DNA of 64,000 nt, taken from the NCBI GenBank assembly GCA_036774405.1, contig DAIPBO010000009.1:8083-72082 (forward strand). Direction: 5' to 3'. A program made the position numbers and the translations under genes. Below are positions 42,989 to 58,951 of this stretch, piece after piece (position 1 is the stretch's first letter; every line of letters starts with the position of its first letter). The notes beneath the pieces are model-generated. The model had not been told where the DNA came from. It did not search any database and saw only the letters and a list, made by a program, of their open reading frames with translations. This DNA is from Chloroflexota bacterium. Its GTDB lineage: Bacteria > Chloroflexota > Anaerolineae > UBA1429.

Positions 42989-45100
42989 ATGAGCCAAGCT
43001 GGACTGCAGTGCGACTCTGGGCTCGAGCTGCTACCGCTGCTTGAGCGTGTTGGGCGCGAGTTGCGAGAGCGGTCTCGTGCACTTGCCGCGCAACTGACCG
43101 AGCCCAACCTGCGCGGGCTGGTCATCGCAGATGACGAGTTCGACCAACTGCTCGGCCAGTCACTGGGCGCATCTCCCTTTGCCTGTCTGCAACCCTTGGA
43201 TAATGCCCTCCACGGGGGAGCCTGGGAGCAACTGCTGGTACGGGTTGGGCTCTCGCATCTCGAAGGTCTGATCATCCTCATCGCGCTGTTGCCCGAGATA
43301 GATCGTGCTTTCGAGCGCATCTTTGGCTACCTGCAAGATGACGTCACTGCGCGGCGCCCGACGGTCGATCTCATGCTACGCCTGCTGTGGGATGCGCCCA
43401 GAGACCGCCTGGCCGCCCGAAGCCTCTTCTGGCCGCAGTCGCCTCTGCGACGGCTGGGCCTCGTGATGCTCCGCTCTGAGGGAGAGCGTGATTGCGGCCT
43501 GCTTGCCCAACAAGTCCTGGTACATCCTATTGCCACCGAGCATCTGCTGCGGCAGGGCGACGCCCCTGAGCCCGTGCAGCACGCCGTACGCGTGCTGGCG
43601 GTCGGCTCGCTGCTCGTGGACGCAGCCAGCCAGCAGGCACACGGCATGCTGGCTTGGCTGAATGATCAGTCGCCCACACGTCTCTGGGTGCAGGCACAGG
43701 CCCCCTACACCGAACTTGTGCGCAACCTGGCTCAGGCAGCTTGCGATAGCTGGCAACTCTCACTCGTCGAGCTGGACCTGTCGCAGACTGGCGATATCGA
43801 AGACGCCACGCGGGCGGCTGCGCTTGAGGCGCTGCTGCGAGACGCCGCTCTGTTCATCAGTGGTCTTGGCGACGAACAGGCTCCCTCTGAGCAACGTCTG
43901 ATGGTCGAGCGCGCCGCTGCCCTATTGTGCGCCTTTCCGCGTCCCGTGTTCTGGCACTGTTCGCTGCTAGTGCCCCTGGCTGCGCCCCCTCATACACGCA
44001 GTGCGACCTGTGAGTTGCCCGCCCCTGATTATGCCCAACGTTTGGCGCTATGGCAGGCCGCCATAGCCCCGGGCACATGCTGTGAGGCTGCTGCGCTCGA
44101 GAAAGTGGCGGGGCGCTACCGTCTGGCGCCAGAGCGTATCGCCTGGTCAGCCCGTGTGGCAGTAGAGACGGCGGCCAGGCTCGCGCCGCAGGCGGCGGTG
44201 CGATTTGCGGACCTGGCCGATGGTGCCCTGCGTGCAAGCAGTCGGGATATCGGGCAGCTAGCGCACCGCATCGCGCCACGGCATGGTTGGCAAGACCTGG
44301 TGCTCCCGGCCGATCGACTGGCGCAGCTCAGGGAGATGTGCGATCAGCTTGCCTACCGGCACGTCGTGATGGAGCAGTGGGGCTATGGTCGACGTAGTGC
44401 CGCGCCCGGCCTGTCGGCGCTGTTCGCTGGTCCATCGGGGACGGGCAAATCGATGGCCGCTGAAGTGATCGCAGGCGAGTTAGGGCTCGATCTCTATCGC
44501 ATCGACCTTTCTGGCGTCGTGAGCAAGTACATTGGAGAGACCGAAAAGAACCTGGCGCGCATCTTTTCGCTGGCGCGAGACGCTAACGCGATCCTGCTAT
44601 TCGATGAGGCCGACGCCCTCTTTGGCAAGCGCTCTGAGACGCGTGATGCCCACGACCGTTACGCCAATATTGAGGTCAGTTATCTGCTCCAGAAGATCGA
44701 AGAGTACGATGGTCTGGTGATCCTCACCAGCAATCTACGGCAGAACCTCGACGAGGCCTTTATGCGGCGGCTGCAGCTCTCGGTCGATTTCCCGTTTCCT
44801 GATGAGCAGACGCGCTTGCAGATATGGCGCAGGCTCATCACGCCGCAGACGCCCGTAGGGGAGCTCGACCTGGAGCATCTCGCCCGACGCTTTCGGCTGT
44901 CGGGTGGCAGCATTCGTAATGTGGTGCTCACGGCGGCATTCCTGGCGGCCCGTGATGGCCAGCCGCTCAACACCGACTATGTGACCTGGGCTGTCCGCCG
45001 CGAGTATCAAAAGCTCGGTCGTTTGGTTGAGGCTGGGCAGTTCGCGACCGGAGAGCGTTTGGGCGCTCGTATCGAGATGCAAGGGTGGGGTGATGCCTGA
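42989..45100 (+). CDS. eCIS-associated AAA+ ATPase (Afp15/Pvc15-like), with a large non-ATPase N-region and a C-terminal AAA+ domain.
   Basis: Walker A GPSGTGKSMAAE, Walker B ILLFDEADALF, sensor/arginine finger ...TSNLRQNLDEAFMRR. This is the first gene of the tail-like cluster. Confidence 0.75.
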   Translation: MSQAGLQCDSGLELLPLLERVGRELRERSRALAAQLTEPNLRGLVIADDEFDQLLGQSLGASPFACLQPLDNALHGGAWEQLLVRVGLSHLEGLIILIALLPEIDRAFERIFGYLQDDVTARRPTVDLMLRLLWDAPRDRLAARSLFWPQSPLRRLGLVMLRSEGERDCGLLAQQVLVHPIATEHLLRQGDAPEPVQHAVRVLAVGSLLVDAASQQAHGMLAWLNDQSPTRLWVQAQAPYTELVRNLAQAACDSWQLSLVELDLSQTGDIEDATRAAALEALLRDAALFISGLGDEQAPSEQRLMVERAAALLCAFPRPVFWHCSLLVPLAAPPHTRSATCELPAPDYAQRLALWQAAIAPGTCCEAAALEKVAGRYRLAPERIAWSARVAVETAARLAPQAAVRFADLADGALRASSRDIGQLAHRIAPRHGWQDLVLPADRLAQLREMCDQLAYRHVVMEQWGYGRRSAAPGLSALFAGPSGTGKSMAAEVIAGELGLDLYRIDLSGVVSKYIGETEKNLARIFSLARDANAILLFDEADALFGKRSETRDAHDRYANIEVSYLLQKIEEYDGLVILTSNLRQNLDEAFMRRLQLSVDFPFPDEQTRLQIWRRLITPQTPVGELDLEHLARRFRLSGGSIRNVVLTAAFLAARDGQPLNTDYVTWAVRREYQKLGRLVEAGQFATGERLGARIEMQGWGDA

Positions 45101-46925
45101 GAAACGCTTTGATCGCGTGAGAGTGACTCCTCGCACAGAGACAGCGCGAAGGGGCGAGTCGCCCCGGCCAGATTCGCTGCGCGCGGACTCTCAGCGGGCA
45201 GGGAATAGGTGTCTGCGCGCCCTGCTGGCGAGCGGAATGCCCAGCGGCATCCTGCGATCGGGGCGTGGCGGAGCTTTTTCCGCGTCGCACAACGTAGAGA
45301 TGGCCCTTGAGCGACGCCGCGGTCTTGGCCAGCCCCTGCCGGAACCAACTCGCACCAAGATGGAGATGGCTTTTGGGGCTTCGTTCGAGGGCGTTACCGT
45401 TCACACCGGCGGCGAGGCGGATGGCCTCGCGCAGCAGGTGGCCGCGGTGGCGTTCACCCATGGCAAAGATCTGTACTTTTCTGCTGGGGCTTTCGCACCC
45501 GACACGCCACACGGTCAGCGTCTGTTGGCTCACGAGTTGACTCATGTGATACAGCAGCGCCCTGGTCGCAAGGTCATGGTTGGCGCGGCCAATGACCCTG
45601 CCGAGTTGGAGGCCGATGCGTTGGCAGACGCCGTCGTGCAGCGTCTGACCTTTGATAGAGCCAGGGGGCAGAACGAGGTTCAGCCCATTCAGCGGCAAGT
45701 AGAACTTGAGGAAGAGGAGCCCATCCAGGCACTGCGGCGCCAGGTTGAGCCCGAGGAAGAAGAGCCCATTCAGACGCTGCGCCGCCAGAGCGAGGATGAC
45801 GAGTTGGCGCAGCCGCTGCGCCGTTCGTCACCGGTCGAGCCTGTGTCGAGCGCGCCTGCCGTCACATCGCAAGGGCCCACGACGGCCGGCGAGGCCTCAA
45901 CCTATGCCCGAGCTATGCAAGCCTATCGGGCCGGCGAGTTGCGCAGCGCTCAGGACCTCTTTCAGCAGGTGCGCGACGATCCTCAGGTGAGCGACCGTGA
46001 ACGAGCCAGCGCTACCTGGAACGTTGGTCGCATTCATGAGGAGCTGGGCGACGAGGCCGCCGCGCTGGCATGTTATCGCGAGTATCTATCCATGCCCGGG
46101 GCCTCTGCTGACCGTCGTCCGGTGGCCGAACGCATTGTGGAGCGAATGGAGAGCGAGCAGCGGGAGGGCGCAGAGCCGGCCGCTGGCATGGGATCGACGG
46201 CAACGGCCGCTGCAGAGCCCGAGGCCGCCACTGCCGAGACGTCGGCGCCTCACCGTCCTCGCCCCGAGGCCGCCCCCGACCCAGCCTCACGAGCCAGGGC
46301 CGTCTATCGCGAGGGCGTTCGCGCCTATCGCGCGGGCGAGTTGCGTGGCGCTCTGGACCGATTCCAGCAGGTGCTCGAGATCGATCAGGCGCCTGCGAGC
46401 CACCGCGCTAGTGCCATCTGGAACATAGGCCGCATCTATCAGGGGATGGGCAATAGCAGGGCCGCTCTGGCCATGTACCGCGCCTATATCGCTCAGCCCG
46501 CCGTGCCCCCCGAGCGTCTCGAGGTGGCGCAGGGCATCATCGCAGACCTGGAGCGTGAAAGCAAAGCCGGCACTGCGGAACCTGAGGCTGGAGTAGGGGC
46601 TGGCCCCGACGACAAGGCGACGGCGCCCGAACGTCTGCCCACCGTTCCCGAGCAGCGAGCTCAGGCGCTCTATGGCCTGGCATCGCAGGCCTATCAGAAC
46701 GGCGACTATGCCACAGCACTCGAGCACCTGCAACAGCTCATGCGTACCGATGGGCTCGAGCAGCGGTTGTATACCGAGACGCTCTACAACATGGCGCAAT
46801 GTTATCGACGGCTTGGCAACAATGGCGCCGCCATAGACATGTATCGTGGTTTTATGGAGCAGCCCGATGCCGCACCCGAAGAGCGCGAGCGCGCACAGCA
46901 ACTGATCGCGACGCTGCGCCGCTAG
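45093..46925 (+). CDS. DUF4157 (HExxH metallopeptidase-like, eCIS-associated) domain protein with an acidic tandem repeat and three roughly 95-aa TPR-like repeats. Candidate effector/cargo or adaptor.
   Basis: AFGASFEGVTVHTGGEADGLAQQVAAVAFTHGKDLYFSAGAF...LLAHELTHVIQQR matches the DUF4157 core. Start ATG overlaps the ATPase stop (ATGCCTGA). Confidence 0.6.
   Translation: MPEKRFDRVRVTPRTETARRGESPRPDSLRADSQRAGNRCLRALLASGMPSGILRSGRGGAFSASHNVEMALERRRGLGQPLPEPTRTKMEMAFGASFEGVTVHTGGEADGLAQQVAAVAFTHGKDLYFSAGAFAPDTPHGQRLLAHELTHVIQQRPGRKVMVGAANDPAELEADALADAVVQRLTFDRARGQNEVQPIQRQVELEEEEPIQALRRQVEPEEEEPIQTLRRQSEDDELAQPLRRSSPVEPVSSAPAVTSQGPTTAGEASTYARAMQAYRAGELRSAQDLFQQVRDDPQVSDRERASATWNVGRIHEELGDEAAALACYREYLSMPGASADRRPVAERIVERMESEQREGAEPAAGMGSTATAAAEPEAATAETSAPHRPRPEAAPDPASRARAVYREGVRAYRAGELRGALDRFQQVLEIDQAPASHRASAIWNIGRIYQGMGNSRAALAMYRAYIAQPAVPPERLEVAQGIIADLERESKAGTAEPEAGVGAGPDDKATAPERLPTVPEQRAQALYGLASQAYQNGDYATALEHLQQLMRTDGLEQRLYTETLYNMAQCYRRLGNNGAAIDMYRGFMEQPDAAPEERERAQQLIATLRR
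45681..45824 (+). repeat. Imperfect 45-nt tandem repeat encoding (V)E(P)EEEEPIQxLRRQ acidic repeats inside the DUF4157 gene.
   Basis: ...QPIQRQ / VELEEEEPIQALRRQ / VEPEEEEPIQTLRRQ / SEDDELAQPLRR. Confidence 0.5.
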
Positions 46926-46931
46926 GGAGCC

Positions 46932-47777
46932 GTGATGATTCACTTGCTTGATGATGCCATCCGTAAACTGATCCAGACTGAGACGGGCTATGCCGCGCCC
47001 GATGTTGAGGTCAGCTTCAGCCAGCCTACGGGCGATTGGGCAGCTGGCCTGACGCATCCGGTGATCAACTGTTATCTATATGATGTTCGTGAGAATAACG
47101 AACTGCGCTCGGCCGAGTGGACCGTCGACCGCGGCCCCAACGGGTATGCGGCCAAGCGAATGGCTCCGCTGCGCTTTGACGTCAGCTATCTCATCACAGT
47201 GTGGACGCAAGACCATATCGACGACGAGCATGCCATGCTCTGGCGCGTGCTCGAGTCCTTGGCGACGCACGAGACGCTCCCAGACCAGTACTGTGATGAG
47301 GCCCTGAAAAGCCAGCCCTATCCACTGCGCTGCAAGACGGCGCAGGCGACGCGTGCCATCGATGATCTACCCGATTTGTGGAGTGTGATGGACAACCCTT
47401 TGCGTCCATCGATCAACTATGTGGTCACCATGGCAATGGAGCGCATGGAGCCGATCCACAGTCGTCAGGTGGTTACCAAACAGATCGACGTGGTGCAACG
47501 TGGGGTGATCGAAACTCAGGCCGAGACGATCCTGCAGATCGGAGGCATCGTCCACAACGGTGGGCGAACGCCTGCCCCAGTTGCGGGCGCCAGCGTCACT
47601 CTGGTCGAAACGGCCCAGCAGACCTTGACTGATCGGCTGGGGCGCTATCGCTTTCGCAACGTGCCGCGCGGTCGCTATCGGCTGGTGGCAGCCCACGAGG
47701 GCATGCATGGTGAGCGCGAGATCATCGTACCTCTACGTTCGGGCGATACCGACCTGTATGACATCGGTGTGCACTGA
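46932..47777 (+). CDS. eCIS cap/tail-terminator protein (Afp16/Pvc16-like, DUF4255) with a C-terminal carboxypeptidase-regulatory-like beta-sandwich.
   Basis: N-terminus MIHLLDDAIRKLIQTETGY...PVINCYLYDVRENNELRS is the typical DUF4255 start. C-terminal GASVTLVE...GRYRFRNVPRGRYRLVA. Confidence 0.65.
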   Translation: MMIHLLDDAIRKLIQTETGYAAPDVEVSFSQPTGDWAAGLTHPVINCYLYDVRENNELRSAEWTVDRGPNGYAAKRMAPLRFDVSYLITVWTQDHIDDEHAMLWRVLESLATHETLPDQYCDEALKSQPYPLRCKTAQATRAIDDLPDLWSVMDNPLRPSINYVVTMAMERMEPIHSRQVVTKQIDVVQRGVIETQAETILQIGGIVHNGGRTPAPVAGASVTLVETAQQTLTDRLGRYRFRNVPRGRYRLVAAHEGMHGEREIIVPLRSGDTDLYDIGVH

Positions 47778-47855
47778 TGCCGAAAGGAGGCACAGCTTTA
47801 TTCTGACATTGTGGCAGGCACCCTGGCTCTGAGGTTGTGAAAAGGACGAGCGAAC

Positions 47856-49418
47856 ATGCCAATCTATCAGTCTCCGGGCGTTTACATCGAAGAGGTCGAC
47901 CGTGGCACACGGCCCATTGAGGCGGTGGGCACCGCAGTTGCGGCCTTTGTCGGCTTTAGCGCCAAGGCCGAGATGCCAGGCGGCGTCAATGAACCGGTGT
48001 CGCTTTTGGGCAAAGCTGTTGCGGTGACCAACTGGTCGCAGTATGTAGAGAGGTATGGCGGCTTTCTCGATGGGGCATACCTGCCCTATGCCGTGTACGG
48101 CTACTTTTTGAACGGTGGCAGTCGCTGCTATGTCGTCAGCGTCAAGACATTGGGAGCTTCGACAGATCCGAGCCTGGCCAGCCCCGCCATGGTGGCGCTG
48201 CCAAGCGGCGGTGAAAAGCCGGCCGATACCCTACAGATCACGTCACGCTCGGGTGGCCCCGCCGGCAATGATATTCAGGTGGCAGTGCGTCCGCTCGAGG
48301 AGGATCGCTTTACGCTGGTCATCAGCGGGCCCGATGGCGCCAGCGAGACCTTCGAGGGCCTGACTCTCGCCAAAGACGAGCGTAACGTCGAGGTGGTGGT
48401 CAACGCCCAGTCTCGACTGGTCAAAGTGGCGGTGCTTAAGGCGGCTGGCAGTTTGGTCGAGCGCAAGCCCCAAGAGGGCACCTACACGCTGACCGGCGGC
48501 GCTATGCAGACCAAGGCCGTTACTGCGGCCGACTATCGCGGGCAGGTGGCGGAGCGCACGGGGATCGGCGGCCTCGAGGCGGTGGAAGAGATCACCATGC
48601 TGGCTGCACCAGATCTCATGGCCAGCTATCAGGCCGGTGAGATGTCGTTGGGCGACGTGCAGGCGGTGCAGCAGGCAATGTACGAGCACTGCGAACGTGT
48701 CAAGTACGCTTTTGCCATCCTCGATTGCCCACCCGATCTGGGGCCTCAGGCCATGCGCGATTGGCGCCTCACAGCCAACTACGACACCAAGTACGCCGCG
48801 CTCTACTATCCCTGGATCGAGACGGGCGACATGGTACGTGGCAAGGGCGTTGTGCGCGTTCCGCCTTCGGGCCACATCGCTGGCGTCTATGCGCGTAGCG
48901 ACGCCGAGCGGGGCGTACACAAGGCTCCAGCCAACGAGGTGGTGCGCGGTGCTACGGGGCTGCCCATCCAGATCACTCGCGCCGAACAGGATAGCCTCAA
49001 CCCGATCGGCATCAACTGCATCCGATCCTTCCCAGGGCGTGGCCTGCGCGTTTGGGGCGCTCGCACCCTCAGCAGTGATCCTGCCTGGCGCTACATCAAC
49101 GTGCGCCGGCTGTTCAACATGGTTGAAGAGTCGATCGAGCGGGGGACACAGTGGGTCGTGTTTGAGCCGAACGACGCCGACCTGTGGGCACGGGTGCGCC
49201 GCGATGTGCGCGCCTTTCTCAAGACCGTGTGGTCGTCGGGGGCGCTGTTCGGGGCTTCGCCCGACGAAGCCTTTTACGTCAAGTGTGATGAGGAACTCAA
49301 CCCACCCGAAGTGCGCGATCTGGGCCAGCTGATCATCGAGATCGGCATTGCGCCAGTCAAGCCGGCTGAGTTTGTCATCTTCCGTATCAGCCAGTGGGCC
49401 GGGCCATCGGCCGAGTAG
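47856..49418 (+). CDS. Contractile tail sheath protein (Afp2/3/4, phage sheath family).
   Basis: MPIYQSPGVYIEEVDRGTRPIEAVGTAVAAFVG N-terminus. Conserved C-terminal sheath domain (AALYYPW...GHIAGVYARSD...APANE). Size 520 aa. Confidence 0.85.
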   Translation: MPIYQSPGVYIEEVDRGTRPIEAVGTAVAAFVGFSAKAEMPGGVNEPVSLLGKAVAVTNWSQYVERYGGFLDGAYLPYAVYGYFLNGGSRCYVVSVKTLGASTDPSLASPAMVALPSGGEKPADTLQITSRSGGPAGNDIQVAVRPLEEDRFTLVISGPDGASETFEGLTLAKDERNVEVVVNAQSRLVKVAVLKAAGSLVERKPQEGTYTLTGGAMQTKAVTAADYRGQVAERTGIGGLEAVEEITMLAAPDLMASYQAGEMSLGDVQAVQQAMYEHCERVKYAFAILDCPPDLGPQAMRDWRLTANYDTKYAALYYPWIETGDMVRGKGVVRVPPSGHIAGVYARSDAERGVHKAPANEVVRGATGLPIQITRAEQDSLNPIGINCIRSFPGRGLRVWGARTLSSDPAWRYINVRRLFNMVEESIERGTQWVVFEPNDADLWARVRRDVRAFLKTVWSSGALFGASPDEAFYVKCDEELNPPEVRDLGQLIIEIGIAPVKPAEFVIFRISQWAGPSAE

Positions 49419-49461
49419 CTGACTCGTGGCGCATGAGCGCGGCGATTGAGGAGGAACACAG

Positions 49462-49905
49462 ATGGGTGAGCGTCAGGACCCATTGGTTGGTTTTCACTAT
49501 GCCATTGACGTGCAAGGCAAGATCCGCGGTTACTTTACCGAGTGTAGCGGCATCGGCTCAGAGCACGAAGTCATCGAACACAAAGTCGTCGACGAAAAGG
49601 GCCGCGAGGTCATCATGAAGCTCCCTGGACGCCTCAAGTGGGAGAACATCACTCTCAAGCGGGGCATCACCAACAATATGGACATCTGGGATTGGCGCGA
49701 CGAGGTTGTCCGCGGCAAGGTGGATGATGCGCGACGCAACGGCTCGATTATCATGTTCGATCAATCGCTCAAAGAGGTCGCGCGCTGGAACTTTGAGCGA
49801 GCGTGGCCGGTCAAGGTTAGCGGACCGGCGGTCAAGGCTGACAGCAACGAGTTTGCGATCGAGGAACTGGTGATCACGCACGAGTATCTGTATCGCGCGC
49901 CTTAA
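49462..49905 (+). CDS. Inner tube protein (Afp1/Pvc1-like, T4 gp19 fold).
   Basis: PLVGFHYAIDVQG...GYFTECSGIGSE...KWENITLKRGIT pattern of eCIS/T6SS Hcp-like tube proteins. Size 147 aa. Confidence 0.8.
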   Translation: MGERQDPLVGFHYAIDVQGKIRGYFTECSGIGSEHEVIEHKVVDEKGREVIMKLPGRLKWENITLKRGITNNMDIWDWRDEVVRGKVDDARRNGSIIMFDQSLKEVARWNFERAWPVKVSGPAVKADSNEFAIEELVITHEYLYRAP

Positions 49906-49921
49906 GGCTGGCGGCTGAACC

Positions 49922-50281
49922 ATGCAGACCGAATTCACGTTCCGCCTGCCCTTGGGCTATCAGGACGGCGCTGGCCAGGTGCACCGAGAGGGCTCGATGC
50001 GCCTGGCGACGGCCATAGATGAGATCGCGCCGCTTGGCGACGCGCGCGTGCGCGCAAACGAAGCCTATCTCTCCGTGCTGTTGCTCGCGCGGGTGGTCAC
50101 ACGGCTGGGATCTCTTCCGACGGTGACCACCGAGGTCATCGAGGGGTTGTTCTCGGCCGACGTGGCCTTTTTGCAGGCGCTCTATCGGCAGATCAACCTG
50201 ACCGGCGGTTCCGTGGTCGAGGCCGTTTGCCCGCACTGCGGCCAGACGTTTGAGGCGCTGCTCGCCTCGTCCGAACCATGA
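49922..50281 (+). CDS. Small conserved hypothetical protein between the two tube genes (possible assembly chaperone). C-terminal CxxC.
   Basis: 119-aa ORF with an ATG 16 nt after the tube stop. No recognisable family. VCPHCGQTFEAL at the C-terminus. Confidence 0.4.
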   Translation: MQTEFTFRLPLGYQDGAGQVHREGSMRLATAIDEIAPLGDARVRANEAYLSVLLLARVVTRLGSLPTVTTEVIEGLFSADVAFLQALYRQINLTGGSVVEAVCPHCGQTFEALLASSEP

Positions 50282-50322
50282 TCAGGTGACATGAGATCAT
50301 GTGCTGTGAGTAGGATGGGCTG

Positions 50323-50751
50323 ATGGAAGTCGAGGCGTATCCGGCCTTTCGGTTTGCCGTGCAGATCGAGGGCGTCACTGAGGCCATGTTCACCGAATGC
50401 ACCTTGCCGTCCCTCGAGGTAGACGTGCGCGAGCAACTCGAGGGCGGCTATAACGATGGCACGCATCTCTTGCCAGGGCGGGTCAAGCGCGGCACCGTGG
50501 CTCTCAAGCGTGGCGTGGCCCGGCAGAGCGCGCTGCTGCGCTGGTACAACGAAGTGATGCAGGGGCAGATCGCCAAGAGCCGTCGGCAGGTATCGGTGCT
50601 CTTGCTCGACTCGCTTGGCGAGACGGTGCTGCGATGGGATTTCGTCGGAGCCTATCCAACCAAGTGGTCGGGTCCTACACTCAACAGTGGCAGCAAAGAG
50701 CTGGCCGTCGAGACGCTCGAACTGGGCTTTGAGAATGTGACGGTGGGGTGA
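50323..50751 (+). CDS. Second tube paralog (Afp5/Pvc5-like).
   Basis: FRFAVQIEG...FTECTLPSLEVDV...GRVKRGTVALKRGV. Size 142 aa. Confidence 0.8.
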   Translation: MEVEAYPAFRFAVQIEGVTEAMFTECTLPSLEVDVREQLEGGYNDGTHLLPGRVKRGTVALKRGVARQSALLRWYNEVMQGQIAKSRRQVSVLLLDSLGETVLRWDFVGAYPTKWSGPTLNSGSKELAVETLELGFENVTVG

Positions 50752-52793
50752 CTGTGACCGAGCGAACGGCAAAGGTAGACGTGGTAAGCGACCTGGCTCA
50801 CGAGGTGGCCGGTCGGTATGCGCCAGCGAGGCTGCTTGTGGGGCTGGGCTCGACGGGCCCAGTGCGCCTACGGCCGCAGGTGACGCTGCGCCTGAGCGAG
50901 CCGGCACCTCCGGCGATTCCTGGCGAGGCGCAAGAGTCGCCCGTAGCCACAGAGTCCCTGACGACACCAGATAGGTCGGCGGTCGCTCCACCCGAGGTAT
51001 CTACAGCCAGCCAAGGGCGTGCCTGGTATGAGCGGCCGTGGCCGTTCACGGTGGAGCAGGTACAGGCCGCCCTCGAGCAGCCGAAAGTATCCTCACCTGA
51101 GGCCATCGCGGCGTCGCAGATTGTGGCTGAGCCGACGCAATCGGCCGCTGAACAACCATCGCATTCAGGCCCAGCGCCAGATCGCGAGCTGCTGCCTGGC
51201 GCCGCAGAGTCGGCCCCACAACAGGGGGTACCCCCTCGCCGTCGACGCGCACAGGTCGACGAATTGTCTGCGACAGTCACCGCAGTTGCCGAGGATACCC
51301 CGTCTCATAGAGCGCCTCGCGCTGAGTCAGGCCGTATAGACGATGAGATGGTTGCCCCTGCCAGTACGGCCGAGCGGGGGCCGGTCGCCGACGCACACAG
51401 ACCAGCCACTGAGGCCACGCGGCCCGCAGCAGCAATCGCGCGTCGCCAGCGAGTCGATAGCGCGCGACCAGATGCACCTGCTGATGTGATGCCGCCGCGA
51501 GCAGCAGCGCCCGCGCCAGCCAGCCAGGCCCCGAACAAAGACGCGATCGACGCGACTGAAGACAGTGCCATGCAAGTACCCGAACCTCTCGCCCGGCCGG
51601 CGAGAGCCTCGGAGCCAGTCGCGCCGCCGATTGTCTCCAACGCATCCTCTGCTGATGCTGTGGTCGCGCAGAACATGCCCCTCATCGACCTATCCATCGC
51701 CCCCCCGCGTGTCGGGGGTGAATATGATGCTGGGCCGCGCCCAACTGGTGGCGACATAGAGACACGGCCAGCCGCGGAGTCACTGTCCGAGCCCGGTCGC
51801 GCTCTAGCCTCGCCGCAGCCCACAACCATGGTCCGCCCAAGGGCGCCGCTGCTACCATCAACGACAGCTGAACCGCGCAGCAGCGAGGTGGCCCTGACCT
51901 TAGCGGCCGTGCCGCCCGTCGGCGAGCCGCCAACCTCCTTTCTGCCTCCCACAGCGGCGGCAGACGCTACCAGTAGATCGGTGCCCGCGGCTGTGAACGG
52001 TCCATTGCCCCTGCAGCGCAGGGCCGTGCAGCGTAGCGATGTCGCACAGCCTCTGGATCAAGCCGAAAGCCTGCCGGAGCGTCATTCTCAGGCTGAAAGG
52101 CCCACAGAACCTCTGGACAGACCACCCGCAGGGCCACCTGTGTACGACCTCAGCGCGCGGTACGAGGCGGCCCTGGACGCCTATCGTGCTGTGCGCTCAG
52201 GCCAGACAGAGCCGTCCATCGAGGCCGCCTCAGCGTCGCCGGCCATAGCCTCTGAGAACTCAGGTGGCTCGATGGTGCAGCGAGTGTCTCTCCGGTCAGA
52301 GGATGCCGCTTCCGCCTCGCTGCTCGAGCCCTCGGCTCATACCGAGCCGGAGACTCTGGGTACCGCCATCCCGACCTTGTCTCTGGTGCGACCTCTCGCG
52401 CGGGCTGGCGCTGCGGTTGAGCAGGCCCCATCGCCGCAGATGGCGCCAGCAGAAGGCGACCGCAGCGTGCAGCTACAGCGTGTGCAGCAGCCTGTCGCGC
52501 TCGAGCAGGCGCATGTTGGGGCCAGAGTGATCTCGACGCCGCCGATGGTCAGCGAACCGTCGAGGAGCAAGCACGCCGCACCTGAGGCATCTGCCGGTGG
52601 CGATGTGGTTCTGCAGCGCGCAACGGTCACGGCCCCAGAGGGACAGGGCGAAGCGAACACGTCTGGCGCGCAGGCTGGGCCTCCTCCAGCGGCCGAGGTC
52701 AATATCGACCGCCTTGCAGAGGAGGTTATGCAGCGTCTGCGCCGTCGTCTACAGATCGAGGCCGATCGCCTCGGCCGGCCAGGTTGGCGCTAG
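50748..52793 (+). CDS. Large Pro/Ala/Ser-rich low-complexity protein in the tape-measure position (candidate tail-length determinator analog, or a disordered substrate/scaffold). GTG start.
   Basis: 681 aa with extreme P/A/S/E bias and a short helical C-terminus (EVNIDRLAEEVMQRLRRRLQIEADRL). Lies between the tube and the LysM/tube-initiator gene. Confidence 0.35.
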   Translation: MTVTERTAKVDVVSDLAHEVAGRYAPARLLVGLGSTGPVRLRPQVTLRLSEPAPPAIPGEAQESPVATESLTTPDRSAVAPPEVSTASQGRAWYERPWPFTVEQVQAALEQPKVSSPEAIAASQIVAEPTQSAAEQPSHSGPAPDRELLPGAAESAPQQGVPPRRRRAQVDELSATVTAVAEDTPSHRAPRAESGRIDDEMVAPASTAERGPVADAHRPATEATRPAAAIARRQRVDSARPDAPADVMPPRAAAPAPASQAPNKDAIDATEDSAMQVPEPLARPARASEPVAPPIVSNASSADAVVAQNMPLIDLSIAPPRVGGEYDAGPRPTGGDIETRPAAESLSEPGRALASPQPTTMVRPRAPLLPSTTAEPRSSEVALTLAAVPPVGEPPTSFLPPTAAADATSRSVPAAVNGPLPLQRRAVQRSDVAQPLDQAESLPERHSQAERPTEPLDRPPAGPPVYDLSARYEAALDAYRAVRSGQTEPSIEAASASPAIASENSGGSMVQRVSLRSEDAASASLLEPSAHTEPETLGTAIPTLSLVRPLARAGAAVEQAPSPQMAPAEGDRSVQLQRVQQPVALEQAHVGARVISTPPMVSEPSRSKHAAPEASAGGDVVLQRATVTAPEGQGEANTSGAQAGPPPAAEVNIDRLAEEVMQRLRRRLQIEADRLGRPGWR

Positions 52794-52806
52794 GAGGGAT
52801 GCAGAG

Positions 52807-53466
52807 ATGCCTACCACTCGCGGCGGCCTCGAGCCCGCTACCATTACCAACAAGACCACGGGCGAAATCACGGCGTGCATGTTCAATCCGTTTGAGTACA
52901 CGATCAGCAAGCAGAATCAGTACGAGAACGCCGAGACCAAAGGGCGGAACATTCCTCGTGTACGCTTTCGGCAGGGTGGCGCCCAGACGCTGGGGCTCAG
53001 GCTGCTGTTCGACACCTATGCCGAGGCCAGCGATGTGCGGGCCGTCACGGGTACGCTATGGCGCATGATGATGATCGATGAGGATCAGGCTGATAGCCGT
53101 ACCGGCAAAGGAGAGCCGCCACACTGTGTCTTTCGGTGGGGCAGGTTCGAATTCGAGGCCGTGATCACCCGCGTGACAGAGAAGATGACTCTCTTCTTGC
53201 GTGACGGTACGCCGGTGCGCAGCGAGGTTGACATTGCCCTGCAGCAAGTGATCGATGAGGAAGAGCATGCCGCAACCAACCCCACATCGGGTGGTGGTGC
53301 CGCCTATAGGACACGCCTGGTACTGGCCGGCGATCGCCTCGACCTGATCGCCTTTGACGTGTATGGCGATGCCACCCGCTGGCGTCTGTTGGCCGAGGCC
53401 AACGCCATCACCGATCCGCTACGCCTGCGGCCTGGGCAGGTTCTCCTAATCCCACCGTTGGTGTGA
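52807..53466 (+). CDS. LysM-domain tail protein (Afp7/P2 gpX-like tube initiator/baseplate hub component).
   Basis: C-terminal LysM YRTRLVLAGDRLDLIAFDVYGDATRWRLLAEANAITDP...LRPGQVLLIP. GGAGGG RBS. The ORF-track start (52597) lies inside the previous gene. Confidence 0.6.
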   Translation: MPTTRGGLEPATITNKTTGEITACMFNPFEYTISKQNQYENAETKGRNIPRVRFRQGGAQTLGLRLLFDTYAEASDVRAVTGTLWRMMMIDEDQADSRTGKGEPPHCVFRWGRFEFEAVITRVTEKMTLFLRDGTPVRSEVDIALQQVIDEEEHAATNPTSGGGAAYRTRLVLAGDRLDLIAFDVYGDATRWRLLAEANAITDPLRLRPGQVLLIPPLV

Positions 53467-53470
53467 GACG

Positions 53471-55174
53471 ATGACAGCCAATCAGGAAGCACTGATCAGA
53501 CAGATTCATGTGAGCGTGGGGGGCCAAGAGCTCGACGCACGGCTGATGACCGACCTGTTCCGCGTCGAAGTCGATACCAGCCTCACCCTGCCCGACATGT
53601 GTGTGCTGCACCTACACGATCGCAACGCCGAACTTGTTGATGAAGGTCCCTTTGAGCTGGGGGCCGAAGTGAGTGTGGGGGTGGGCGACGAGCAGGGCCG
53701 CGGTGACAACGCTCTGTTTGTTGGCGAGATCACTGGCATCGAGCCCGAGTATCGCCGCGGGACAGTGGTCGATCTGCTGGTGCGAGCCTACGACCGCACC
53801 CATCGGTTGCAGCGAGGTACGCGGACGCGCACCTTTCAGAATGTCACCGATAGCGACATCGCCACGGAGGTGGCTCAAGTGGCGGGGCTGCGTGCCGACG
53901 TGGACACGACCACCACGCAACACGAGCACGTATTCCAGGATGGCACCAGCGACTATGCCTTCTTACAACAGCGTGCCGATGCGATCGGCTACTATCTCTG
54001 GGTGCGCGAGCAGACGCTCTACTTTAAGCGCGAGTCTGCCACGGGCAATGCTGTGGACCTCGAGTGGGGCCGCGGGTTGCTCGAGTTTCATCCGGTGCTG
54101 GCGCTAACACAACAGGTCAACGAAGTGGCCGTGCGCGGCTGGAATCCCGAGGCCAAGCGTGAGGTTCTGGGGAGTGCCACCACCGGCAGCGCAGCGCCCG
54201 CAATCGGCCAGTCTGGCAGCGGGGCCAGTCTGGCAGAAGACTCCTTTGGGGCGGCCAGCGCACTGGTGGTGGCAACGGGGCTTGCAGCGCAAGAGGAGGC
54301 CGACCGGCTGGCACGCGCCACATTCGATCACTATGACGGCCGTTTTGTCGAGGCGCAAGGTGTCTGCGTGGGCAATGATGCTATCCAGGCTGGAACCATT
54401 GTGAACATCAGCGCCGTGGGCCAGCGCTTTAGTGGACACTATACGGTTACCAAGGCTACCCATATCTGGGATACTCAAGATGACTATCTGACCCACTTTG
54501 CTGTGACGGGCAGAGGTGGAGACACGCTTCGTGAGCTGATTACTGGCAGACCACGAGAGGATCGCACGTGGCCCATCATGGTGGGCATTGTCACCAACAA
54601 CGATGATCCGCAGGGGCAGGGCAGAGTGCGCGTCAGGTTGCCATGGCTGGGAGACGAGGCCGAAGCCCAATGGGCACGTGTGGCCAGCCCAGGAGCCGGC
54701 AACCGGCGAGGGCTTTTGGTGCTGCCCGAGGTGAACGATGAGGTGCTGGTCGGCTTTGAGCAGGGTGATATCGGACAGCCGATCGTGCTCGGGGGTCTAT
54801 GGAATGGGCAGGACGCCTTGCCAGCTGACTCGTCTGATGTGGTGGTGAATGGCGAGGTCAACCAGCGTGCATGGGTGACGCGACGAGGGCACAAGATCGT
54901 GCTCTCTGAACAGAACCCGGCGTTGGTGCGCATTGAGAGTGTGGCGGGCAACACGCTGGTTATCGATGATGACAACGCACGGATTGAGATAAGAACTGCA
55001 GGGGGCAACACACTAACGCTCGACGACAACGGACAGTCACTCAAGATCGGGGGCAATGGACAGATCGAGATCGAGTCGAGCACCAACCTCAGTATCAAAG
55101 CGGGCGGCAATCTTGATCTCGAGGCCAGTGGCGTCACCACGATCCGTGGCGCCACTGTACAGCTCAACCCATAG
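53471..55174 (+). CDS. Baseplate hub/spike protein (Afp8-like, phage late control gene D + gp5/VgrG-like C-terminal beta-helix).
   Basis: gpD-type N-domain. C-terminal repeats ...LVIDDDNARIEIRTAGGNTLTLDDNGQSLKIGGNGQIEIESSTNLSIKAGGNLDLEASG. Confidence 0.75.
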   Translation: MTANQEALIRQIHVSVGGQELDARLMTDLFRVEVDTSLTLPDMCVLHLHDRNAELVDEGPFELGAEVSVGVGDEQGRGDNALFVGEITGIEPEYRRGTVVDLLVRAYDRTHRLQRGTRTRTFQNVTDSDIATEVAQVAGLRADVDTTTTQHEHVFQDGTSDYAFLQQRADAIGYYLWVREQTLYFKRESATGNAVDLEWGRGLLEFHPVLALTQQVNEVAVRGWNPEAKREVLGSATTGSAAPAIGQSGSGASLAEDSFGAASALVVATGLAAQEEADRLARATFDHYDGRFVEAQGVCVGNDAIQAGTIVNISAVGQRFSGHYTVTKATHIWDTQDDYLTHFAVTGRGGDTLRELITGRPREDRTWPIMVGIVTNNDDPQGQGRVRVRLPWLGDEAEAQWARVASPGAGNRRGLLVLPEVNDEVLVGFEQGDIGQPIVLGGLWNGQDALPADSSDVVVNGEVNQRAWVTRRGHKIVLSEQNPALVRIESVAGNTLVIDDDNARIEIRTAGGNTLTLDDNGQSLKIGGNGQIEIESSTNLSIKAGGNLDLEASGVTTIRGATVQLNP

Positions 55175-55177
55175 GAG

Positions 55178-55585
55178 TTGATGATGGCGGCGGTGCCGGC
55201 GGCCAAGCAGGGCGATTTGGTGCAGGCGATGGACACCCACATCGTGATGGTGCCCACGCCCGGTGGATCTGTACCCACGCCCATGCCCGGGCACCCTTTC
55301 GCGGGCACCATCGATGGTGGGTTGAGCAGTAATGTCACCATCATGGGGCGACCCGCTGCCACCATGAACAGTACTGCTACCAACCAGCCCCCACATATAC
55401 CCATCGGCGGGCCATCTTTTCAGGTGCCGCCCAGTAATCGTGCCACCATTGTGCAAGGAAGCGCCACAGTCTTGATCAACGGACTGCCAGCGGCGCGTAA
55501 CGGTGATATGGCGCTCACTTGCGATGACGCCGCACCAGCTCCGCACGGTCAGGTGATTGCCACAGGTACCGTCTTGATTGGCTGA
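55178..55585 (+). CDS. PAAR-domain spike tip protein (Afp10-like).
   Basis: Three PAAR-like beta-strand repeats. Ends GDMALTCDDAAPAPHGQVIATGTVLIG. Size 135 aa. Confidence 0.65.
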   Translation: MMMAAVPAAKQGDLVQAMDTHIVMVPTPGGSVPTPMPGHPFAGTIDGGLSSNVTIMGRPAATMNSTATNQPPHIPIGGPSFQVPPSNRATIVQGSATVLINGLPAARNGDMALTCDDAAPAPHGQVIATGTVLIG

Positions 55586-55599
55586 AAGGCAGGAGACCA

Positions 55600-55995
55600 T
55601 TGGCGGGCGATATCATTGGACGTGGTTGGACATTTCCGCCTCGACTCGATGAGCGTGGTCAGGTCGCCATGGTCGGTGGCGAGGTCGAGATCGAACAGGC
55701 AGTAAGGATCATTCTAGGCACCTCACCGGGCCAGCGGGTCATGCGACCCGAGTTCGGCTGTCGGCTTCAAGAACTCGTTTTTGCGCCCAACAACAGCCGC
55801 ACCGCTGGCCTCGCCGAGCGCTATGTACGCGAGGCGCTAGGGCGCTGGGAGCCGCGCATTCGAGTGACCGCGGTGAGCGTGAGCACTGACAATCAGCATG
55901 AGGGGCAGTTGTCTATCGGCGTCGAGTATCTCATCAAGGCAACTCACTCGAGCCGTTCCTTGGTCTACCCATTCTACCTGATTCCAGAGGAGTAA
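55600..55995 (+). CDS. Baseplate wedge protein gp25/GPW-like (Afp9).
   Basis: GDIIGRGWTFP...EQAVRIILGTSPGQRVMRPEFGCRLQELVF is the conserved GPW_gp25 motif. Size 131 aa. Confidence 0.8.
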   Translation: MAGDIIGRGWTFPPRLDERGQVAMVGGEVEIEQAVRIILGTSPGQRVMRPEFGCRLQELVFAPNNSRTAGLAERYVREALGRWEPRIRVTAVSVSTDNQHEGQLSIGVEYLIKATHSSRSLVYPFYLIPEE

Positions 55996-56001
55996 AGCAG
56001 C

Positions 56002-57987
56002 ATGCCGCTGCCCAGCCAGCCCCTAGATGATCGCTCGTTTCAGGACCTGGTTGACGAGGCCAAGAAGCGCATCCCGCTCTATTGCCCCGAGTGGACTGAT
56101 CACAATGTGAGTGACCCCGGGGTGACACTGATTGAGCTGTTTGCCTGGATGATGGACATGCTCCTATTTCGCCTCAATCAGGTGCCACGCAAGCACTATG
56201 TCAAGCTGCTCGAGTTGCTTGGCATCCAGCTTCAGCCACCAAGGGCCGCTATGGCACCGTTGGTATTCTATCTATCGACGCCACAGGCACAACCGGTGCA
56301 GGTGGCTCGTGGCACCGCGGCGAGCACGAAGCGTTCAGGCGGTGAGGAGGCGATCGTCTTTACCACCGAGAAGGACCTTACGATCCAGCCGGCCCAGCTA
56401 GAGCATCTAGTGGCACGCCGACGTCTCGGCGATCAGGGCATGGTATTCCAGGATATCGGCCTGCAAAGGCTCGAGCGCGACTTTCGTCCGTTCTCTGCCA
56501 CCGATCCGCATCAGGGCGAGGCACTCTACTTTGGTTTGGGCGGCGAGTTGCATCGACACGTGCTCGGGCTCGAGCTCGACTGTGTGCGCGCAGGTGGGCT
56601 GAACATCATCCCAGAAAACCCACCTCTGGTGTGGCAGGCTTGGAGCGAGGGGGGCTGGAGCGATGTTGATGTGGAGCAGGATACCACCGGCGGCCTAAGC
56701 TGGACTGGGCAGGTGCGGATTCATCTGCCCCAGATGGCCCGCAGCGACGTCAACGGTGTTGAGGCGTACTGGGTGCGCTGCCAGGTGATCGCCGCAGAGC
56801 AGGGGCGGCGTGCCTATGCGACCTCGCCGATCATCCGCAATGTGCGGGCTCTGACCTGGGGTGCCACTGTCGATGCCATGCATGCCACCGAGGTACAGGC
56901 CGAGCCGTTGGGGCGCAGTGATGGGTCGCCCGGGCAGGTGTTCAGTCTCGAACACGCGCCAGTTCTGCCGCGCATGAAAGAGGAGTGCGTCGTGATCTGG
57001 CAACCCGGGCTCGACAGCGGGGAGGAATGGCACGAGGTGGAGAGTTTCGCCGAGACCTCGGCCGAGGATCGGTGCTACACACTCGACAGCGCCACCGGTG
57101 AAGTAACCTTTGGCCCTGCCATCCGCCAGCGCGATGGGTCGGTGCGTAGCTACGGGGCCATACCCCCGCGCGGCGCCGAGCTGCGCATGACGCGCTATCG
57201 CTATGGCGGTGGCACTCGTGGCAATGTCCGTGCAGGGGCGGTCACCGAGCTGCGCACTGCCATACCCTACGTCGCACGCGTGACGAATCGCCTGCCGGCC
57301 AGCGGCGGGTGGGACCCCGAGGATCTAGAGGCAGCGATGTTCCGTGCCCGCCATGAGTTGCGGACACGCTATCGGGCGGTAGCTCCTGACGATTTCGAGT
57401 TCTTGGTGCTGCAGGGCTTTCAGGGCCGCATCGCCCGTGCGCGCTGTCTGCAGGCAGCCCAGATGGGGCGTGGCGCACCCTCGCCAGGGCAGGTCTATGT
57501 GGTGGTCGTTCCCCAGCTGTCACCTGACGAGGCTCGGCGCTACATCCCCCCCTCGCGGCTCGCCCTGACGCCCGAGTTGCAGCAAGAGGTCACAGCTTTC
57601 CTGGATGAGCGCCGTCTCTTGACGACGCAGCTGGCCGTGCGTGAGGCGGGCTACAAGCGCATTGCTGTACAGGTGGCGGTCGTAGCCAGGCCAGGCACCG
57701 ACGCCCACCGGTTAAGGACTGATGTGCACCAAGCGCTCGACCTTTTCCTGAATCCTCTCGTGGGGGGATTGGATGGCACCGGCTGGCCCTTTGGGCGTGA
57801 GGTCTATCTGTCTGACCTGTACACGTGTATTCAGCAGGTCGACGGGTTGCTCAACGTACAGACACTGCAGATGGCCTGGCTTGATGAGACCGACCAGCCG
57901 CACCTGGGCGAGCGCAAAATCGACTTGTTGGCGCATGAGGTGGCGATCTCAGACATCCACGTCGTCACTGTTGAGGCGGGAGAGTGA
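56002..57987 (+). CDS. Baseplate J-like protein (Afp11, T4 gp6-like).
   Basis: 661 aa. N-terminal FQDLVDEAKKRIPLYCPEWTDHNVSDPGVTLIELFAWM is typical of baseplate J. Confidence 0.8.
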   Translation: MPLPSQPLDDRSFQDLVDEAKKRIPLYCPEWTDHNVSDPGVTLIELFAWMMDMLLFRLNQVPRKHYVKLLELLGIQLQPPRAAMAPLVFYLSTPQAQPVQVARGTAASTKRSGGEEAIVFTTEKDLTIQPAQLEHLVARRRLGDQGMVFQDIGLQRLERDFRPFSATDPHQGEALYFGLGGELHRHVLGLELDCVRAGGLNIIPENPPLVWQAWSEGGWSDVDVEQDTTGGLSWTGQVRIHLPQMARSDVNGVEAYWVRCQVIAAEQGRRAYATSPIIRNVRALTWGATVDAMHATEVQAEPLGRSDGSPGQVFSLEHAPVLPRMKEECVVIWQPGLDSGEEWHEVESFAETSAEDRCYTLDSATGEVTFGPAIRQRDGSVRSYGAIPPRGAELRMTRYRYGGGTRGNVRAGAVTELRTAIPYVARVTNRLPASGGWDPEDLEAAMFRARHELRTRYRAVAPDDFEFLVLQGFQGRIARARCLQAAQMGRGAPSPGQVYVVVVPQLSPDEARRYIPPSRLALTPELQQEVTAFLDERRLLTTQLAVREAGYKRIAVQVAVVARPGTDAHRLRTDVHQALDLFLNPLVGGLDGTGWPFGREVYLSDLYTCIQQVDGLLNVQTLQMAWLDETDQPHLGERKIDLLAHEVAISDIHVVTVEAGE

Positions 57988-57990
57988 GCG

Positions 57991-58941
57991 ATGGCTGATG
58001 CCCTGGGCGCACGATTGATCATCCGTATGCCCGATGGCCCCGACGTAGTTTTTGCACTTGCTCAGCCGGTGGTGCGCATCGGCCGTAACCCTGCGCCACA
58101 GAACGACCTGGTGCTACCACATAGCGCTGTGTCGCGCTATCACGCTCGCATCTACTGCGATCGCTTGCCCTATCGCGTGCAAGATGTGGGCAGCAGCAAC
58201 GGCACCGCCCTGAACGACGCGCCGGTGGCCCCTAATGAGATGTGGCCCCTGACTGACGGCGATATCATTGGCATCGGGCCCTTTCGGCTGACCTATGTGG
58301 CACCCCGCGAGTCGGATCAGGCTTTGGCCATCGAGCCTCCTGTGGCGAGGGCTGAGGCAGAGATCGCCGCAGGTGGGCAGGCAATGCCCGGCACACCAGG
58401 TGGCGCAGAGCCGCCCATCCCCCCCTCTCAAGGGCAGCGTGTATTGTCAGAGCCGCCGCCATGGTTAGGCATGCCCACCGACGCCAGTCGGTGGTTGCAG
58501 CACCTGCCGCCACTCTACGCCGAGGAAGGATTCCTGGGGCGGTATCTCCTGCTGTTCGAAGATTTGCTGGGGCCAGCCGAACAGGCGATTGCGCATTTCG
58601 ACCTGTTCCTTGACCCCGAGACCTGCCCCGATGATATGGTGCCGTTGTTGGCGCAGTGGCTTGGCGTTGAGGTTGCCGAGCGCTGGCCACTGGCCGTCAA
58701 GCGGCAGCTCGTAAAGCATGGCGCCTGGCTGCATCGAGCCCGTGGTACGCTGCCTGGCCTAAAGCGTCACCTCGAGATCTGCACGGGCGGTGCGGCCGAG
58801 ATCAGCGAGAACGACGAGCGCCCTCACACCATCGTCGTTCGCATCGCTGCCCCTCAAGAGACGATCGATCGGCCGCTGCTCTCTGAGGTGATCCGCTATC
58901 ACTGCCCTGCTCACGTGGGCTTTGCCTTACGGATAGACTGA
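57991..58941 (+). CDS. FHA domain fused to a P2 gpI-like baseplate protein (Afp12-like).
   Basis: N-terminal FHA (VVRIGRNPAPQNDLVLPHSAVSRYHARIY...VQDVGSSNGTALND). C-terminal LDPETCPDDMVPLLAQWLGVEV...KRQLVKHGAWLHRARGT matches the tail protein I family. Confidence 0.7.
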   Translation: MADALGARLIIRMPDGPDVVFALAQPVVRIGRNPAPQNDLVLPHSAVSRYHARIYCDRLPYRVQDVGSSNGTALNDAPVAPNEMWPLTDGDIIGIGPFRLTYVAPRESDQALAIEPPVARAEAEIAAGGQAMPGTPGGAEPPIPPSQGQRVLSEPPPWLGMPTDASRWLQHLPPLYAEEGFLGRYLLLFEDLLGPAEQAIAHFDLFLDPETCPDDMVPLLAQWLGVEVAERWPLAVKRQLVKHGAWLHRARGTLPGLKRHLEICTGGAAEISENDERPHTIVVRIAAPQETIDRPLLSEVIRYHCPAHVGFALRID

Positions 58942-58951
58942 CGACGGCCCT

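Follow-up and report, generated by a model that had tools for sequence, protein, structure and literature searches.

A DUF4157 protein with three tetratricopeptide repeat modules, a candidate cargo of a contractile injection system in a Chloroflexota genome

The window analyzed here, a stretch of 64,000 nucleotides from a Chloroflexota bacterium (Anaerolineae, UBA1429; GenBank assembly GCA_036774405.1, contig DAIPBO010000009.1, positions 8,083 to 72,082 of the forward strand), contains a gene cluster (42989-62050) for a contractile injection system (CIS) of the Afp/PVC superfamily. The second gene of this cluster (45093-46925, + strand) is an open reading frame (ORF) of 610 codons without internal stop, and its 610-aa product, a candidate cargo protein of the system, is composed of a disordered N-terminus, a DUF4157 zincin domain, an acidic repeat linker and three tetratricopeptide repeat (TPR) modules. 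It is the sole DUF4157 match across the six frames of the window. The gene is located between the first gene of the cluster, which encodes an AAA+ ATPase of the Afp15/Pvc15 type (703 aa; 42989-45100, + strand; Pfam WHD and AAA matches), and the gene (46932-47777, + strand) for a cap protein of the Pvc16/Afp16 type that ends in a CarboxypepD_reg domain (Pfam).

The ATG start codon (45093-45095) overlaps the TGA stop codon of the ATPase gene (45098-45100) by 8 nt (ATGCCTGA), as had been observed in the first-pass annotation, and the cap gene begins 6 nt past the stop codon. This ATG, and not an upstream TTG at 45027, is considered the real start because the N-terminus is shared among orthologs (related proteins and loci are given below by their P and L numbers): the motif M-x-[ED]-K-x-[YF]-[DE]-R-V-R is common to P0002 and P0004 (MPEKR[FY]DRVR in both) and to the ORF of L004, which carries it once extended to an ATG that overlaps its ATPase stop. 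A DUF4157 gene directly follows the ATPase gene in L001, L004, L041, L044, L046 and L047, with overlaps of 8 nt (L001), 17 nt (L004) and 14 nt (L041) and gaps of 2 nt (L044), 4 nt (L047) and 44 nt at the called start (L046). The tight spacing in most relatives points to translational coupling of the protein to the ATPase. The cap gene lies directly 3' of this slot in all related loci examined, and the Ig-like CarboxypepD_reg domain at the C-terminus of the cap protein is kept in all related loci seen. One residue separates the protein from its database cluster representative (P0001), which is listed as 100% identical: RERASATWN in the window is RERANATWN there (aa 306, near nt 46008).

The AlphaFold2 model of the protein, built on a 49-sequence alignment (mean predicted local distance difference test score (pLDDT) of 77, predicted template modelling score (pTM) of 0.38), displays a basic disordered N-terminus, a zincin-like domain, an acidic disordered linker and the three TPR modules, which are separated by disordered linkers. 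The N-terminal region (aa 1-57, 45093-45263, + strand), delimited by the model and by composition, has an isoelectric point of 11.7 and contains 13 lysine and arginine residues; pLDDT is below 50 for aa 1-51, and the extreme N-terminus is conserved among orthologs. No signal peptide or hydrophobic segment was seen by eye in the protein. The confidently folded zincin-like domain (aa 58-196, 45264-45680, + strand) is comprised of the PF13699 core (aa 81-158) and, outside the Pfam limits, of two further helices on the N-terminal side and a long one (aa 169-194) on the C-terminal side. The match to PF13699 (eCIS_core/DUF4157) covers profile positions 1-78 of 79 with E=2e-29 and 102 bits (cut-off 22), confirming the family assignment that had been made from the sequence.

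The domain contains the zinc-binding and catalytic HExxH motif HELTH (aa 147-151, 45531-45545, + strand; H147, E148, H151), followed by VIQQ, and displays the HExxHxxQ signature (HELTHVIQQ, aa 147-155). The conservation expected of HELTH in orthologs was found: the motif is invariant in the 49 aligned homologs and in A4, a 29-sequence profile of the DUF4157 domain and its following helix, while its near-universal presence in the wider hit set is partly an artefact, this set having been selected by shared 5-residue words. At the start of the long helix lies DPAELEAD (aa 168-175, 45594-45617, + strand), in which D168, E171, E173 and A174 are invariant in A4. This profile matches the M48 peptidase BepA (E=0.001), with D-P-l-E-r-E-A-D aligned to the BepA sequence QQNEQEAD, and because of this alignment E171 is predicted to be the third zinc ligand; the first glutamate of NEQEAD in BepA corresponds, by a numbering offset of +43, to E201, which we take to be the third zinc ligand of that enzyme. 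A gluzincin precedent is E983 in VgrG2b (Wood 2019, PMC6899460). The predicted gluzincin site of the DUF4157 domain is intact. This bears on the earlier statement that the locus lacks classical toxin genes. No toxin-like domain was found in the cluster (42989-62050) besides the protein itself, and the VgrG-like gene (53471-55174) is without a metallopeptidase extension according to Pfam; but the lack of a classical toxin does not imply the lack of a warhead, because the predicted gluzincin site is intact and the DUF4157-type domain of VgrG2b is itself a toxin.

The disordered acidic linker spans aa 197-265 in the model and holds, in aa 197-246 (45681-45830, + strand), the repeats identified by repeat searches: QPIQRQVELEEEE / PIQALRRQVEPEEEE / PIQTLRRQSEDDEL / AQPLRRSS, three to four imperfect acidic units of 13-15 aa (EEEEPIQxLRRQ). 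The tandem 45-nt repeat proposed earlier is therefore present. A DNA repeat search gave a period of 45 nt, with two copies of 82% identity plus a degenerate third (39-nt spacing, 73%), and in the protein an offset of 15 brings 11 of 13 residues into agreement, against at most 8 in 2000 shuffles; Tandem Repeats Finder, with scores down to 30, reports no array at the acidic linker, so the array is short and imperfect. Among the orthologs the repeat copy number varies, with the RR(Q) pairs being invariant. Acidic repeats of this type, with a glutamate run, Q and basic residues, recur across DUF4157 proteins (e.g. VQRQVEPEEEEEPIQAKP), where they are usually located N-terminal of the domain. The D..E.EAD motif also accompanies DUF4157 in most homologs, again usually on the N-terminal side: it was found only before the domain in 72 of 115 domains and only after it in 12 in the word-index hit set, and in a word-free HMMER set of 320 domains only before in 120, only after in 33 and on both sides in nine, 'before' and 'after' being ambiguous in multi-domain proteins. 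In the protein studied here the motif lies 8 residues C-terminal of the PF13699 domain. D..E.EAD and acidic repeats precede the domain in homologs such as P0013, P0016, P0023 and P0060 (among P0005-P0265), and follow it in the present protein and a minority of homologs; judged from these sequences, the swapped position may represent a circular permutation or a pro-peptide-like element.

The C-terminal region scores 58.2 bits with TPR_12 (cut-off 30.1) over three stretches, and TPR_6, TPR_2, TPR_8 and TPR_16 were also above cut-off. AlphaFold2 folds it into three 5-helix modules, each with pLDDT >90: module A (aa 270-360, 45900-46172, + strand; Pfam, AlphaFold2 and Foldseek), which consists of two TPR hairpins and a capping helix, module B (aa 397-494, 46281-46574, + strand; Pfam and AlphaFold2) and module C (aa 519-609, 46647-46919, + strand). 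The three TPR-like repeats of roughly 95 aa described previously agree with the number of modules and with the size of their folded cores, but not with their start-to-start spacing of 134 and 122 aa, and the region begins near aa 266 instead of aa 285. Module A is the least conserved and is missing from P0004. Module B shares 43% identity with module A, with direct DNA repeats 402 nt apart; modules A and B share 43-62% identity within the clade of the window, and module C is distinct. Within the C-terminal region it is module C that is conserved best, with 72-79% identity between orthologs that overall share 52-58%. Foldseek with the full model and phmmer with the C-terminal region found consensus TPR proteins as best matches, and these searches provided no functional lead, returning generic or consensus TPR proteins only.

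It is scarcely credible that the gene is the decayed remnant of a toxin gene whose repeats and TPR-like region are low-complexity drift. Although 159 of the 610 residues are predicted by AlphaFold2 to be disordered and an enzymatic C-terminal domain is lacking, at least six independent loci of conserved synteny keep an uninterrupted reading frame, the residues of the catalytic motif are all invariant, as are the RR(Q) positions of the repeats in orthologs, and the TPR modules combine confident folds with, in module C, high conservation.

Orthologs of the TPR type are rare (P0002, P0003, P0004, P0118 and P0120). A search with the C-terminal region at E<=1e-5, limited by the word index, returned four relatives only, of which two (P0003 and P0004) are members of the CIS-linked DUF4157-TPR family and two (P0119 and P0121) are short TPR-only proteins; a scan of GTDB representative genomes gave no ortholog of the TPR type, only domain-level matches to DUF4157 (29-51% identity, mostly aa 53-203). 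The sheath clade comprises at least 8000 relatives. The sheath relatives on which the taxonomy rests are labelled Chloroflexi or Anaerolineae.

When the slot between the ATPase and Pvc16 genes was compared among related clusters, we found that its N-terminal module of about 250 aa (disordered region, DUF4157, DPAExEAD and acidic repeats) is common to other occupants and that the remainder differs. The module is followed by the three TPR modules in L001, L004, L041 and L046, which represent at least two different chromosomal settings, and by a DUF922 domain in P0241, whose gene again precedes Pvc16. L047, with a sheath 75% identical to that of the window and the same chromosomal neighborhood, encodes a 254-aa protein that ends right after the repeats, without any C-terminal region. 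In L044 (4342-7509) the DUF4157 module and the triple TPR region are found apart on two adjacent genes: the first protein (611 aa) combines DUF4157 with an unrelated helical C-terminal region, and the second (P0136, 439 aa) combines an N-terminal region with the three TPR modules and is without DUF4157. P0136 retains at its N-terminus the sequence NRALQRLAQE...VRRQE and looks as though DUF4157 and the repeats had been excised. In L048, finally, the slot is empty, with a sheath 72% identical. The same N-terminal module is thus joined to three TPR modules, a DUF922 domain, an unrelated helical region or nothing, and this occupancy of the slot in related Chloroflexota-type clusters is the pattern of polymorphic cargo.

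Because of this variable occupancy, together with a layout like that of Cgo1 and Cgo2 of AlgoCIS, we favor the reading that the protein is a cargo-type protein of the injection system, to which we give about an even chance. Cgo1 and Cgo2 are carried as cargo in the tube lumen, and their loading needs the N-terminal region and not DUF4157. By analogy with these two proteins, aa 1-57 of the present protein are proposed as a loading signal; P0136, with its N-terminal region and three TPR modules but no DUF4157, fits loading by the N-terminus alone. The basic disordered region would be recognized by the adjacent Afp15-type ATPase, which would pass the protein on into the lumen of the tube. The DUF4157 domain would act as a small gluzincin in which H147, H151 and E171 bind the zinc and E148 serves as catalytic base, and might process the protein itself, possibly within the acidic EEEE-x-x-Q-x-L-R-R-Q linker, or alternatively be active in the recipient as a peptidase. 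The three TPR modules would then be the C-terminal payload, non-enzymatic peptide-binding units on flexible linkers that could bind a partner, keep it sequestered or guide the peptidase to it. It may be speculated that such a beads-on-a-string layout would suit packing in a narrow tube.

Several points weigh against a role as cargo. TPR domains typically occur in adaptors and chaperones, not in toxins. The gene is located at the 5' end of the cluster beside the ATPase and cap genes and not at the 3' end, where eCIS (extracellular CIS) toxin genes are usually found (Geller 2021, PMC8213781). Between clusters that differ in their chromosomal setting, the triple TPR region retains 45-58% identity and, judged by these sequences, is more conserved than polymorphic payloads usually are, and the L047 form without C-terminal region suggests a constant function in the DUF4157 module itself. 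In AlgoCIS, DUF4157 is dispensable for loading and the toxicity of Cgo1 is independent of the HExxH motif. Furthermore, no tail-fibre (Afp13-like) gene was recognized in the cluster (42989-62050), so that the machine may be something other than a free extracellular particle.

Some of these points are in line with the main rival, a possible but rather doubtful explanation in which the protein is not injected and acts inside the producing cell as an accessory factor, either a peptidase-TPR adaptor or an assembly chaperone working with the Afp15 ATPase in a BepA-like manner. What the TPR modules hold would be unfolded cargo, the tape-measure-like protein or the acidic repeats found in DUF4157 proteins, and the peptidase would trim them or exert quality control. 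BepA, which takes part in the assembly of outer-membrane proteins, joins an M48 peptidase to a TPR domain, and this pairing, together with the usual roles of TPR domains, makes such a function conceivable; so do the wedging of the gene between ATPase and cap by its short overlap and gap, the retention of the triple TPR region across clusters with its strongly conserved module C, and L044, where this region is encoded separately beside a DUF4157 protein with acidic repeats. There is no other cargo gene in the cluster, and DUF4157 has been proposed to be a chaperone, in cis or in trans (Danov 2024). On the other hand, the slot is empty in L048 and its occupant lacks TPR modules in L047 and the P0241 locus, with otherwise the same structural genes, so the triple TPR region is not needed for assembly in close relatives. 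An adaptor also needs clients, none of which is encoded nearby; there is no Pfam M48 match; the TPR modules are placed on disordered linkers and are not docked on the peptidase as in BepA, as reflected in the low pTM; and the TPR part is only generically similar to consensus TPR proteins.

The arrangement in L044 and the repeats bordering the domain could also be combined in an unlikely but consequential scheme, in which DUF4157 and the three TPR modules of this CIS lineage form a two-part device for loading or processing instead of a toxin. The TPR modules would bind the repeats with their E-run, Q and RRQ, either their own or, as in L044, those of other DUF4157 proteins, and hold the cargo for the ATPase, and the gluzincin, completed by the ExEAD helix, would cut within the acidic repeats. 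If true, this would explain why the ExEAD helix and the repeats occur on either side of the domain, and it would provide a general mechanistic role for DUF4157, an open question since 2012.

The remainder of the cluster includes other non-structural genes. Downstream of the cap gene are located, in this order, genes for the sheath and tube, a 119-aa ORF, a second tube gene, a 681-aa ORF at the tape-measure position (50748-52793, + strand), a CIS_tube/LysM protein, the VgrG-like spike, PAAR, gp25, Baseplate_J, an Afp12-like baseplate protein (Tail_P2_I; 57991-58941, + strand) with an FHA domain at its N-terminus, and, as last gene, a Ser/Thr kinase-FHA-PLAT protein (58952-62050, + strand) with one apparent transmembrane helix (WAIPILTTLVLLLCAGVALAY) and TSP3 repeats. 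The cluster is flanked by housekeeping genes, DHDPS and MobB upstream on the minus strand and LarC- and LarB-like genes downstream. The 681-aa protein is Pro/Ala-rich and apparently disordered, has no Pfam match, and holds several [LV]QR motifs (LPLQRRAVQRS, MVQRVSL, VQLQRVQQP and VVLQRATV) that resemble those in the linkers of DUF4157 proteins. A tme-like effector, in which DUF4157 is combined with a tape-measure-like protein (Nagakubo 2024), was rejected as a classification, the 681-aa ORF being without DUF4157. The first-pass annotation had singled out the DUF4157 protein as the only plausible effector or adaptor of the locus. As far as the role itself is concerned this would fit the known cargo architecture; its uniqueness does not hold, since the kinase-FHA-PLAT protein and the 681-aa protein are also non-structural members of the cluster.

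The kinase and the FHA-baseplate protein resemble the PpkA/Fha1 threonine-phosphorylation switch of the T6SS (type VI secretion system), here wired to an Afp/PVC-type baseplate, and the pair is kept in both L047 and L048. The TPR modules might accordingly be imagined as a scaffold for signalling by the Ser/Thr kinase and FHA proteins, through which assembly or firing would be controlled, and TPR scaffolds for Ser/Thr kinase signalling exist, for instance PknG. Such a regulatory circuit is nevertheless very unlikely: L047 and L048 keep the kinase and FHA-baseplate genes but lack the triple TPR region, so the two are not coupled, the DUF4157 protein has no phospho-binding or kinase-related feature, and in every system studied the DUF4157 module marks cargo.

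Whether as cargo or otherwise, the protein is an expected component of such a cluster, and its significance lies in the family to which it belongs. DUF4157 is the most widespread CIS cargo marker and its role is unsettled, with loading, processing, chaperoning and toxicity all having been proposed. Within one CIS lineage the present family provides a natural dissection, in which the module is found with three TPR modules, with another domain, alone, split or absent. As a cargo with a C-terminus that consists of protein-binding scaffold only, the protein would offer a simple test case for DUF4157 and acidic repeats without a confounding toxin, as well as for the packing and delivery of small helical modules on flexible linkers.

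Compared with known systems, the protein shares with BepA (YfgC) and other M48 peptidases the HExxH motif and a downstream glutamate in a motif of the E-x-x-A-D type (DPAELEAD versus QQNEQEAD). Membership of the M48 family (BepA/HtpX/Ste24) was rejected, as no Pfam M48 family model matched. Its catalytic domain is much smaller than that of BepA, whose TPR forms one contiguous domain packed on the protease whereas three modules on disordered linkers are found here, and BepA is periplasmic, whereas the present protein showed no export signal on inspection. In Pseudomonas aeruginosa VgrG2b, the DUF4157-type domain is a C-terminal metallopeptidase effector of solved structure (PDB 6h56) and is itself the toxin (Wood 2019, PMC6899460). 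There the domain is joined to a T6SS spike and an immunity gene comes next; here it is part of a free-standing protein with a disordered N-terminus, followed by the cap gene, and neither the spike/PAAR fusion nor the downstream immunity gene of the evolved-VgrG type was found.

DUF4157 has been regarded as a CIS marker and presumed releasing peptidase since 2012 (Zhang 2012, PMC3482391) and was named a core domain in 2021 (Geller 2021, PMC8213781), and variable C-terminal partners constitute its polymorphic cargo pattern (Zhang 2012, PMC3482391; Geller 2021, PMC8213781). The protein agrees with the PF13699 family and the PVC-metallopeptidases in its HExxHxxQ...E signature, in the position of the domain N-terminal to a variable region and in its residence in a CIS cluster. 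It differs in that the partners described are mostly toxin domains and not three TPR modules, and in that D..E.EAD directly follows the domain, whereas it precedes the domain in most homologs sampled. Literature searches with 'tetratricopeptide' and 'TPR' found no description of a DUF4157-TPR fusion, which thus appears to be undescribed, yet variable C-terminal regions are the rule in the DUF4157 family.

Among studied CIS proteins, Tme, a DUF4157 protein, co-purifies with the tip of the Streptomyces CIS, and for Cgo1 and Cgo2 of AlgoCIS studies of 2022 and 2026 demonstrated the cargo layout and the part played by the N-terminal region. Tube loading has been shown for Cgo1 and Cgo2 only, and the comparison with the present protein is one of layout. 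The protein differs from both in its C-terminus, where theirs is a putative enzyme and here three TPR modules are found, in the acidic repeat linker after the domain, and in the location of its gene between ATPase and cap. What it has in common with them is a disordered N-terminal region, a central DUF4157 domain and a variable C-terminal region, encoded in a cluster with an Afp15-type ATPase.

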